DNA from: Naegleria gruberi
Taxonomy: Eukaryota
Strand: one strand, 5' to 3'
DNA: 1,456 nucleotides
Assembly: GCA_000004985.1 (NCBI GenBank)
Contig: GG739417.1
Both the position numbers and the translations under genes were made by a program. Of this stretch, positions 1 to 1,456 are shown one piece after another. Under the pieces are notes generated by a model that saw only the letters and a program-made list of their open reading frames with translations, was not told where the DNA came from and ran no database searches. Numbering within the stretch: position 1 is the first letter of the stretch; each line of letters begins with the position of its first letter.

Positions 1-81
1 AACATCAATAACAGATACAATTGAAATTAATCCCCATATATGTAAACCAATCCATATAATAACACTAATATATAATAAATA
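1..81 (-). other. Third hydrophobic, TM-like segment (NYLLYISVIIWIGLHIGGLISIVSVIDV) running off the low-coordinate edge of the window
   Basis: The + sequence here (taa/ata/aat/cca/acc/atg/tat/ccc/tcc...) decodes on the minus strand as an L/Y/I/S/V/W/G-rich run of about 27 aa. It is preceded by the acidic EDESP. Confidence 0.45.
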
Positions 82-1456
82 ATTTGGTGATTCATCTTCT
101 TGTATTGTTGTTGTTGAAGTTGTTGTTGTTGGTATTATATTATTATTAGATCCACTATTATTTAAATTATTATTTATGGAAATTGAATTATTTAATGAAT
201 TTTTTAATTGTTGTTGTAATTGTTGTGGATCAGTTGTAGTTGTTGTTGTAGTTGTTATAGTACTATTATTAGTCATATTATTATTTTTATTTTGAAAATA
301 ATTACTATTATTAATATTTAAATTATTCGAACTTTCCATATTTGTATTTGAATTAACATTTATAGAATTATTTAAAGAATTTCTATTCATTAAATTTGAA
401 TTATAATTTAAAATTTCATTATAATAAAAAACATCATCATCTTTTAAAGGTTCAAATCTAACAGTTGTTCCATTTTCTAAAATTGTTTCTTCTTGTAATT
501 GTTTTTTTTTAAATAATTGTTTTTTTTTAAATAAACTAATTGAATCTTGATGTTCAAATTTGTAAGTATGTTTTTTTAAATTCTTTTTTTCTAATTGTTT
601 TTTATTTTTTTTTAATAATTTAGTTTTTTTAAAACATTTAAAAATCATGAATGAAATTAAAAATAAAGAAAATAATAAACAATTAATAGAATTAGATAAA
701 ATAATAAATTTCATATAATTTTTAGTACATGATATTTCTATTATCATTCCAATAATAAAAATAGTTAAAAATAATAAAAATAAAAAAGTAAATAAAGTAA
801 TAAAAATAGAATGTGCAATAATAGAAGATAACCAATATTGATATCTAAACCATTTCATTGATCTACCTTGATATAAAGTTTGACTTTCATAAACTTGTAC
901 TAAATTTTTAAATCCAACAACTCTATCAAATATTGGATCATCTCTAAATGTTGTTATTGATTTCTCTTCATTCATTTCACTTAAAGATGAATAACTTTTT
1001 AATATTGATTTGGAACTTGAATTCTTTTTTAAATTATTTAAATTATTTAAATTAATATTTAAATTATTATTGTTAGATTTTGAATTATTTAAATTATTAT
1101 TATTATTAGGTAATGATTCTACATTATTTTCATGTATTAAACTACCTTTAGAATTATATCTAACATTTGATACTGTTGTTGTTGTTATTGTATTATTATT
1201 GGATGTATTATTATTTTGATTTTGATTGGAAATAAAAGATTGATTGGTATGTGTTGTTGTAAAACTATTATTATTATTACTACTAATAAAACTCATATTA
1301 TAATTTGTTATATTTGATGTTATTTCATCTAAATGATTATTTAAATTATCATTAATATTATTATTTAATAAATTATTTAATGATTTTTGATTTAAATTAT
1401 TAGTTGAATTATTATTACTATTTTGTATTATATTTGATATTTGTGATGATGTTATT
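1..1456 (-). CDS. Internal fragment of a large N/T/Q/K-rich low-complexity integral membrane protein, open at both ends (no start or stop in window). The minus-strand frame uses + triplets 1-3 ... 1453-1455. I translated this frame by hand (reverse-complement of + triplets starting at positions congruent to 1 mod 3). Reading minus, 1455 down to 1, it gives approximately: ITSSQISNIIQNSNNNSTNNLNQKSLNNLLNNNINDNLNNHLDEITSNITNYNMSFISSNNNNSFTTTHTNQSFISNQNQNNNTSNNNTITTTTVSNVRYNSKGSLIHENNVESLPNNNNNLNNSKSNNNNLNINLNNLNNLKKNSSSKSILKSYSSLSEMNEEKSITTFRDDPIFDRVVGFKNLVQVYESQTLYQGRSMKWFRYQYWLSSIIAHSIFITLFTFLFLLFLTIFIIGMIIEISCTKNYMKFIILSNSINCLLFSLFLISFMIFKCFKKTKLLKKNKKQLEKKNLKKHTYKFEHQDSISLFKKKQLFKKKQLQEETILENGTTVRFEPLKDDDVFYYNEILNYNSNLMNRNSLNNSINVNSNTNMESSNNLNINNSNYFQNKNNMTNNSTITTTTTTTTDPQQLQQQLKNSLNNSISINNLNNSGSNNNIIPTTTTSTTIQEDESPNYLLYISVIIWIGLHIGGLISIVSVIDV
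   Basis: Every occurrence of TTA, CTA or TCA on the + strand (the reverse complements of TAA/TAG/TGA) falls in the other two phases. None starts at a position congruent to 1 mod 3 anywhere in 1-1456. About 485 stop-free codons by chance in DNA this AT-rich is essentially impossible. The + strand itself is riddled with TAA/TGA/TAG. Codon usage is strongly Dictyostelium-like (N=AAT, Q=CAA, T=ACA/ACT, K=AAA, L=TTA, I=ATT). No minus-strand intron donor (acttac on +) is visible, which fits a single exon across the window. Confidence 0.82.
104..130. repeat. (TGT)n microsatellite interrupted by gaag. It encodes poly-Thr (TTTTSTTT) on the minus strand via ACA codons.
   Basis: attgttgttgttgaagttgttgttgttgg: TGT triplets in phase with the minus-strand frame. 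Confidence 0.85.
208..258. repeat. Compound trinucleotide tract: (TTG)n, which is CAA poly-Gln (QQLQQQ), abutting (TGT/AGT)n, which is ACA/ACT poly-Thr (eight T in a row) on the minus strand
   Basis: ttgttgttgtaattgttgtggatcagttgtagttgttgttgtagttgttatag. The triplet phase switches from ttg to tgt at the ggatc junction, giving ...TITTTTTTTTDPQQLQQQLK. Confidence 0.85.
499..534. repeat. Perfect 18-bp tandem duplication, ttgtttttttttaaataa x2 (499-516 and 517-534). It is in frame and encodes LFKKKQ-LFKKKQ on the minus strand.
   Basis: Letter-by-letter comparison: ttg + T9 + aaataa occurs twice, head to tail, with zero mismatches. 18 nt is 6 codons, so the frame is preserved. Confidence 0.9.
631..687 (-). 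other. Predicted transmembrane helix 2 within the minus-strand ORF (INCLLFSLFLISFMIFKCF, about 19 aa), followed at once by a Lys-rich segment
   Basis: A hydrophobic run lying 12-15 residues after TM1, which looks like a helical hairpin. It is followed by KCFKKTKLLKKNKKQLEKKNLKK, a positive-inside style flank. Confidence 0.5.
739..807 (-). other. Predicted transmembrane helix 1 within the minus-strand ORF (IFITLFTFLFLLFLTIFIIGMII, about 23 aa)
   Basis: An uninterrupted run of I/F/L/T/G/M codons (revcomp of aat/aaa/taa/agt/tcc/cat/tat on +). It is flanked by polar or charged residues: WLSSIIAHS upstream and EISCTKNYMK downstream. Confidence 0.6.
1031..1067. repeat. Imperfect 9-bp tandem repeat (aaattattt / aattattta family, about 4 units). 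In frame, it encodes an (N-N-L)n style tract (LNNSKSNNNNLNINLNNLNNL).
   Basis: aaattattt aaattattt aaattaata tttaaattatt: period 9 with 1-2 substitutions per unit. Confidence 0.7.
1093..1107. repeat. (ATT)5 microsatellite, which is (AAT)5 poly-Asn on the coding strand
   Basis: attattattattatt in frame; it translates to NNNNN. Confidence 0.85.
1174..1186. repeat. (TGT)4 microsatellite encoding TTTT on the minus strand. A second short (TGT)3 lies at 1252-1260.
   Basis: tgttgttgttgtt, and later gtgttgttgt. Confidence 0.8.
1264..1284. repeat. act(att)4actact, encoding SSNNNNS on the minus strand
   Basis: actattattattattactact in phase with the ORF. Confidence 0.8.

Follow-up and report, generated by a model that had tools for sequence, protein, structure and literature searches.

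The minus strand of a 1,456-nucleotide stretch of Naegleria gruberi DNA (NCBI GenBank assembly GCA_000004985.1, contig GG739417.1; the whole stretch is hereafter called the window) encodes what is, with high confidence, an uncharacterised and conserved membrane protein of four helices that carries, next to the membrane, a disordered motif that is itself conserved. We tentatively propose that the window holds the central part of this protein, and that residues 178–198 (window 862–924), together with the SILK motif at residues 150–153, would be disordered and, close to the membrane, dock the catalytic subunit (PP1c) of protein phosphatase 1 (PP1); judging from the sequence motifs, we place this proposal a little short of an even chance. 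The non-repetitive blocks of the encoded product are real protein and comprise the SILK motif, the RVxF-like motif, helices 1 to 3 and two loop motifs; the tracts rich in Asn, Thr and Gln are lineage-specific insertions.

The encoded protein and its relatives

Read from the reverse complement with an offset of 1, the minus strand is open over 485 codons (positions 1–1455) with no stop codon across the whole window, and the frame passes both window ends. The window has a GC content of 17% and abundant short tandem repeats, features that would favour an accidental open frame in AT-rich, repeat-rich DNA that is not a gene. We give this explanation practically no credence, and regard it as already refuted: the longest open frame among 500 base shuffles, with all six frames considered, had 107 codons, and the product has significant protein homologues (E values of 3.7e-17 to 8.5e-5), with conservation limited to non-repetitive blocks. 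The GC content at third codon positions is 5% and codon use is strongly AT-biased (AAT for 98 of 99 Asn, TTA for all 49 Leu and CAA for all 22 Gln residues; among the Ile codons ATA makes up 45% and ATC is not used). Composition of this kind would suit a dictyostelid-like genome. Asn makes up 20% of the encoded product, which has long tracts rich in N, T and Q; the gene, of which the window covers an internal part, encodes a multi-pass membrane protein interrupted by long Asn/Thr/Gln-rich insertions.

Four relatives were found in an HMMER scan that was exhaustive over 1.84 billion representative proteins. The closest, P0001 (444 residues; E = 3.7e-17), is only 41% identical and is encoded on a 3.3-kb metagenome contig of the Joint Genome Institute (L002; 38% GC). 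P0002 (462 residues; E = 2.4e-9) is a hypothetical protein of Willaertia magna (Heterolobosea), the product of a single-exon gene (GCA_041937235.1), and P0003 (615 residues; E = 5.2e-6) is encoded by an intronless gene on a 29-kb eukaryotic contig of 26% GC, beside genes for Sec1, FH2 and Med6 proteins; two of the four relatives (contigs L001 and, for Willaertia, L003) are single-exon genes on eukaryotic contigs. P0004 (595 residues; E = 8.5e-5) is an unnamed product labelled Naegleria fowleri (CAG4707986.1); helices 1 and 4 are missing from it but the motifs on either side are retained, which looks like a gene-model error in which sequence was skipped. A preliminary description of the window, made from the sequence alone, had suggested a search for orthologues in dictyostelids; the relatives found belong to Heterolobosea and to two AT-rich environmental eukaryotes, not to dictyostelids.

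Conservation was scored in a five-sequence alignment of the window protein with P0001–P0004. From the N-terminal side, the conserved blocks are KPILK/SILK, followed after about 25 variable residues by [KR]-x-[VI]-x-F-x3-V-x-[VI]-x-E-x2-T-x-Y-x-G; a belt of aromatic and basic residues that closes with [FY]W; helix 1, in which a His is invariant; the C-x-K-x-Y loop of ten residues; and the helix 2 block, Y-I-x-L-S-[DN]-x2-N-C-x2-F. Helix 2 is followed by a basic stretch and then by a long loop, variable in sequence, that carries K[FL]xHQDSxSL and (L/F)EP[LI]KD[DE], and the order is completed by helix 3 (W-x2-L-H-x-W-G-x2-S-x2-S-V-I-D), G-T-C, helix 4 and the C-terminus. Identity to the window protein is 0.39 for R178–W208, 0.38 for helix 2 (without gaps), 0.59 for KFEHQDSISLFK and 0.52 for helix 3.

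The preliminary description had singled out an island, RDDPIFDRVVGFKNLVQVYESQTLYQGRSMKWFRYQYW, as unlike its flanks, and had assigned it, with two hydrophobic helices behind it, to window positions 631–860. The peptide is present as residues 171–208; it maps, however, to window 945–832, and the interval 631–860 contains only its last ten residues together with the two hydrophobic segments. As described, the island is non-repetitive (Shannon entropy of 3.3–3.6 bits per 20 residues, against 1.7–2.6 in the N-rich flanks) and rich in aromatic residues and Arg (4–8 W, Y, F or R per 20 residues, against 0–3 in the flanks). It is also kept in the relatives, in which the N-rich tracts are mostly gaps or unconserved, the reverse of the outcome that the preliminary description had named as a refutation. 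The view that this segment is the conserved functional core, and the handle for homology detection, was borne out: in three of the four relatives the match begins at query residue 21–22, which is R178, and continues through both helices. The island opens with seven residues, RDDPIFD (residues 171–177; window 925–945, minus strand, as are all protein features below), that are not conserved, with an identity to relatives of 0.05 and partly gaps.

Short linear motifs in the juxtamembrane segment

Strong conservation in the family begins with an RVxF-type motif, R178-V-V-G-F182 (window 910–924). We applied the definitions of Wakula ([RK]-x(0,1)-[VI]-{P}-[FW]), Hendrickx ([KRL][KRSTAMVHNQ][VI]{FIMYDP}[FW]) and Meiselbach, and the list of residues disfavoured at the x position (PMC3792071). 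The columns read RVVGF in the window protein and KLVGF, KNVDF, KTVRF and KKIYF in P0001–P0004; all five conform to [KR]-x-[VI]-x-F and to the Wakula consensus, and F182 is invariant. We also looked for the canonical accessory layout of PP1-interacting proteins (RIPPOs), in which SILK lies N-terminal to RVxF and a phi-phi pair lies 5–8 residues after it. In true sites SILK is reported always to precede RVxF, and residues ahead of the motif are basic and those behind it acidic (PMC3792071); the window protein shows the same order and the same charge of the flanks.

The SILK-type motif, S150-I-L-K153 (window 997–1008), lies 28 residues upstream of the RVxF-like motif and is a regular-expression match to the canonical [GS]IL[KR], for which 0.09 matches are expected per shuffle. 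At the aligned position the relatives read KPILK, RPILK or KPLL, and canonical motifs occur in addition in P0002 (SILK96) and P0003 (SILR46). Counting SILK and [PS]ILK together, a motif of this type is found 18–63 residues upstream of RVxF in all five proteins, and in its canonical form in three (window protein, P0002 and P0003). Downstream of the RVxF-like motif, K183–R198 (KNLVQVYESQTLYQGR; window 862–909) would be a phi-phi/Arg region; in it V186, T193 and Y195 are invariant. Counted from the Phe, Val is invariant at +4, Val or Ile occupies +6 in five of five sequences and Glu +8 in four. V188-Y189 would be the phi-phi pair, five residues after F182, and R198 follows eight residues after it; two relatives have Lys at the R198 position.

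Comparison with known PP1 regulators

The spacing within the segment equals that of the PPP1R15 protein GADD34. In GADD34 the phi-phi pair, V564/H565, lies five residues after the Phe of KVRF (PMC10743859); the GADD34 peptide in the PP1 complex 4xpn, RKVRFSEKVTVHFL, reads KVRF-SEKVT-VH, KVRF being its RVxF motif, and KVRFSEKVTVH aligns without gaps with LVGFSEHVQVR of P0001 and VVGFKNLVQVY of the window protein. Like PPP1R15A/GADD34 and PPP1R15B/CReP, the window protein would combine a disordered RVxF, a phi-phi pair after five residues and a membrane tether. The tether of PPP1R15 is an N-terminal amphipathic helix (PMC10743859), whereas the window family is anchored by spanning helices, with the putative docking site about 25 residues from the membrane and not at the opposite end of the protein. 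There is, moreover, no sequence homology to the PPP1R15 family (GADD34, CReP and DP71L) beyond the motif, and no evident region for recruiting eIF2-alpha or G-actin in the window family. A PDB profile search returned no PPP1R15 chain, and PP1-binding Pfam domains gave no match with the window protein at E values up to 10 or with P0001–P0004 at E values up to 1.

For SILK the closest comparison is inhibitor-2. In the PP1 complex 2o8a its segment reads RPIKGILKNKTS, the GILK motif being separated by 31 residues from KSQKW, and the SILK–RVxF distance is 26–28 in three members of the family. The local context is alike as well (RPIKGILKNKTS in inhibitor-2; RPILKTS, KPILKKS and KSILKS in the family). 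Unlike inhibitor-2, the family is without the inhibitor-2 helix (HYNE region) and shows no homology to it, and two members have Pro instead of Gly or Ser before IL. The K183–R198 region was further compared with the PP1-bound segment of spinophilin (3egg). In the PNUTS-type Arg motif a basic residue lies eight residues after phi-phi (PMC10731240), a spacing that R198 matches, and PP1 docking by short linear motifs extends to distant protists, as in Leishmania PNUTS (PMC10731240). Polycystin-1 and LAP1B, the latter of the nuclear envelope, are described as membrane proteins that are both regulators and substrates of PP1 (PMC3366979; PMC3792071). Like the window family, they are integral membrane proteins with an RVxF motif on the cytosolic or nucleoplasmic side; their folds and families are unrelated to it, and PP1 binding was shown experimentally for them but is predicted from motifs here.

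Membrane helices and predicted topology

The last ten residues of the island, S199–W208 (SMKWFRYQYW; window 832–861), form an aromatic and basic belt at the predicted cytosolic start of helix 1. The preliminary description had suggested an amphipathic or interfacial region, and it is the second term that applies: the belt behaves as an interfacial one, its F203 and W208 columns and basic residues being conserved, and [FY]W is present in all four alignment rows that have the region, with basic residues following in the relatives. An amphipathic region, in contrast, finds no support: hydrophobic moments are unremarkable, and AlphaFold confidence is low over the conserved island residues, which have the pattern of linear docking motifs.

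Behind the belt lies transmembrane helix 1 (L209–I239, 31 residues; window 739–831), with conserved H215, F222 and G236. It is followed by a short, predicted non-cytosolic loop (E240–K249, EISCTKNYMK, ten residues; window 709–738), in which C243-x-K245-x-Y247 is conserved in all rows having the region, and by helix 2 (F250–F272, 23 residues; window 640–708), with conserved S254, D/N255 and F262, an invariant C259, and N258 in three of five sequences. The two helices of the preliminary description are thus real, but its lengths (about 23 and 19 residues, with about 13 between them) were only roughly right. Helix 3 (Y459–V485; window 1–81), absent from that description, is cut by the window end; W468, H472, W474, S478 and I483-D484 are invariant, its W..LH.WG..S..SVID is the most conserved motif of the family and its identity the highest of the helices, and in the relatives it is followed by GTC and then by helix 4.

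Several measures agree that these segments are membrane helices. The peak 19-residue Kyte-Doolittle means are 2.96, 2.14 and 2.33 for helices 1, 2 and 3, respectively, and in 2000 shuffles of the whole protein a 19-residue mean of 2.14 was reached in 2.3% of cases and one of 2.96 in none. A simple additive Hessa-2005 sum gave -6.1 for helix 1 and +0.5 for helix 2, by which helix 2 is marginal as a lone transmembrane segment. Single-sequence AlphaFold2 prediction made both helical, with a predicted local distance difference test score (pLDDT) of about 90. An alignment-based AlphaFold2 model was built for residues 166–444 of P0001 from the five-sequence alignment; it has four helices at a pLDDT of about 80, and its 55 N-terminal residues, like its central loop, are below 50. 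In this model the helix at 56–91 aligns with helix 1, and further helices lie at 209–236 and 246–278. According to the alignment and the P0001 model, what had been described as a helical-hairpin anchor makes up helices 1 and 2 of a bundle of four, in which conserved polar residues lie within the membrane.

The residues preceding helix 1 carry a net charge of +3, the short loop one of +1 and the residues following helix 2 one of +8. By the positive-inside pattern, the N-terminus would lie in the cytosol, as would the long, low-complexity stretch that links helices 2 and 3, and both of the short loops with a Cys would lie on the opposite side of the membrane.

Towards the cytosolic face, H215 of helix 1 and H472 of helix 3 are about equally deep in the membrane, and D/N255 and D484 lie towards the far face; this placement suggests a metal- or ion-binding site. 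Each short non-cytosolic loop has one conserved cysteine, C243 (window 727–729) and that of the G-T-C which follows helix 3 in the relatives, and the two could form an inter-loop disulfide. Tetraspans of the connexin, pannexin and LRRC8 type use inter-loop disulfides, but with much longer loops. Comparison with generic tetraspan bundles (LRRC8, pannexin, connexin, synaptophysin, tetraspanin and sarcospan) was also made, and no specific match in sequence or fold was found to the known tetraspan families (connexin, pannexin, LRRC8, tetraspanin, MARVEL and claudin).

Alternative explanations

Two alternatives concern the helices. According to the simpler one, an amphipathic or interfacial helix and a plain two-helix hairpin would have the sole role of anchoring a low-complexity protein in the membrane. 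The two hydrophobic helices with their short loop are real, as is the aromatic and basic belt at residues 199–208, and single-sequence AlphaFold2 does place a helix over residues 174–194, at a pLDDT of about 50. Nevertheless, we consider a mere anchor improbable: it is largely refuted by the third helix at window 1–81 and by the fourth present in all full-length relatives, of whose bundle the supposed hairpin represents helices 1 and 2, and the conserved polar residues (H215, S254, D/N255, C259, H472, S478 and D484, with N258 in three of five), the unremarkable hydrophobic moments and the unstructured island in the alignment-based model all argue against it. More improbable still is a wedge hairpin of the reticulon-homology or Pex24/Pho86 type that shapes membranes of the endoplasmic reticulum or peroxisome, with the 31-residue segment dipping into one leaflet. 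The unusual length of this first hydrophobic segment would suit such a wedge, and the core has weak Pfam matches to Pho86 (E = 0.0011; 18.8 bits) and Pex24p (E = 0.44). These scores, however, are far below the gathering scores (18.8 against 29.3 bits for Pho86; 10 against 26.8 for Pex24p) and involve the core only; none of the four relatives matches either family at E values up to 1, the equivalent segment of P0003 has about 25 residues, AlphaFold2 shows straight spanning helices in a four-helix bundle, and a conserved Cys in each short loop fits a lumenal or extracellular face.

The alternative to PP1 docking is of another weight. The conserved juxtamembrane block (VxF...VxV.E..T.Y.G) might be strand-forming and serve another partner, oligomerisation or packing on the protein's own cytosolic loop, the RVxF and SILK matches being coincidental; we give this a substantial, if minority, share of the probability. 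A number of observations weigh on its side and against a PP1 site, the evidence for which consists of short linear motifs. Loose RVxF matches are common, with 0.6–1.4 expected per protein, and at least three of the five members fail the strict definitions, the Hendrickx form being found in two (RVVGF of the window protein and KTVRF of P0003) and the Meiselbach form in one (P0003). The Asp and Tyr at the x position of P0002 and P0004 are disfavoured, and P0001 has Leu at the second position. P0001 and P0004 have PILK, not [GS]ILK, at the aligned SILK position; the second phi position varies (Y, R, T, Q and R); and alternating V-x-V is typical of any beta-strand. Known PP1 motifs also leave unexplained the conservation of T193, Y195, G197 and F203, the first two invariant, which could reflect a different partner or a small folded element. 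On the other side, all five proteins have three separate PP1-type motifs, correctly ordered and spaced, and the full combination is found in at most 1.5e-4 of 20,000 shuffles of each protein's N-terminal region, although Val at +4 and phi at +6 in the pattern were partly picked after seeing the data. Neither AlphaFold2 model shows an intramolecular packing partner. The pLDDT of 37–53 across the candidate docking segment in both models fits a disordered cytosolic docking region, although with five sequences only such low confidence is weak evidence of disorder.

Possible role of the proposed docking segment

If the segment does bind PP1, its docking elements would be spaced as follows: SILK about 28 residues ahead of RVxF, phi-phi five residues after RVxF, and Arg a further eight residues on. 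Bound to this disordered, cytosolic part of the protein, no more than about 25 residues from the bilayer, PP1c would be held at the membrane face of the four-helix bundle. There it might dephosphorylate, in cis, the protein's own conserved cytosolic loop; KFxHQDSxSL in that loop, the most conserved of the soluble elements, is the obvious candidate substrate. Alternatively, the protein would target PP1 to neighbouring membrane substrates. Dephosphorylation would then regulate whatever the bundle does.

A broader version of the proposal, which we consider doubtful, is that the family represents a previously unrecognised class of integral-membrane PP1 regulatory subunits of Amoebozoa-like and heterolobosean amoebae, in which SILK, RVxF and phi-phi lie within about 25 residues of a channel- or transporter-like bundle with membrane-embedded His and Asp, and in which the KHQDSxSL loop is the substrate. 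Such a protein could also act as a membrane-anchored holophosphatase for a soluble substrate in lineages without PPP1R15 homologues. Were PP1 docking to prove true, the family would provide a new membrane-embedded PP1 regulatory subunit from amoeboid protists, lineages for which no described PP1 regulators turned up, and there would be a testable way into a tetraspan family that is otherwise anonymous; were it to prove wrong, this would be one more conserved hypothetical membrane protein.

Database searches, loop motifs and a tandem duplication

Pfam gave nothing at or near gathering scores for the window protein or its four relatives, and PDB sequence and profile searches returned chance matches only (Nup53 and antibody heavy chains; E values of 0.05–1.3). 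A word-indexed protein search with the core and with the five-sequence alignment gave no match, even though the relatives sit in that collection, and two metagenome contig scans and one viral contig scan gave no confirmed locus. Even exact segments of proteins that the collection contains, used as queries, retrieved no member of the family in the word-indexed search or the metagenome scans; the failure to retrieve a dictyostelid orthologue is therefore uninformative and is not to be read as true absence. An Rfam search of both strands of the window gave no match, and the plus strand has short low-complexity open reading frames only.

Two motifs are conserved in the long loop. K299–K310 (KFEHQDSISLFK; window 526–561), in the predicted cytosolic loop, is the most conserved soluble block of the family, with 0.59 identity among aligned cells; three relatives read K[FL]KHQ[DN]SxSL and P0003 reads KFRDSIVL, and its Ser makes it a candidate phosphorylation site. 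The second, F334–D341 (FEPLKDDD; window 433–456), follows (L/F)EP[LI]K-D-[ED] and is conserved as LEPIKD, LEPLND and LEPLKD in P0002–P0004, respectively, with 0.04–0.07 matches expected per shuffle. Its L-E-P-I start resembles the PP2A-B56 motif LxxIxE; as a B56 site, however, the motif (FEPLKD in the window copy) fails the ELM pattern, since position 6 is Asp and not Glu.

The basic stretch of the loop contains an exact 18-bp tandem duplication, TAATTGTTTTTTTTTAAA (window 496–534; 2.2 copies, 100% match), which encodes a repeated LFKKKQ and appears to be a recent in-frame slippage event.

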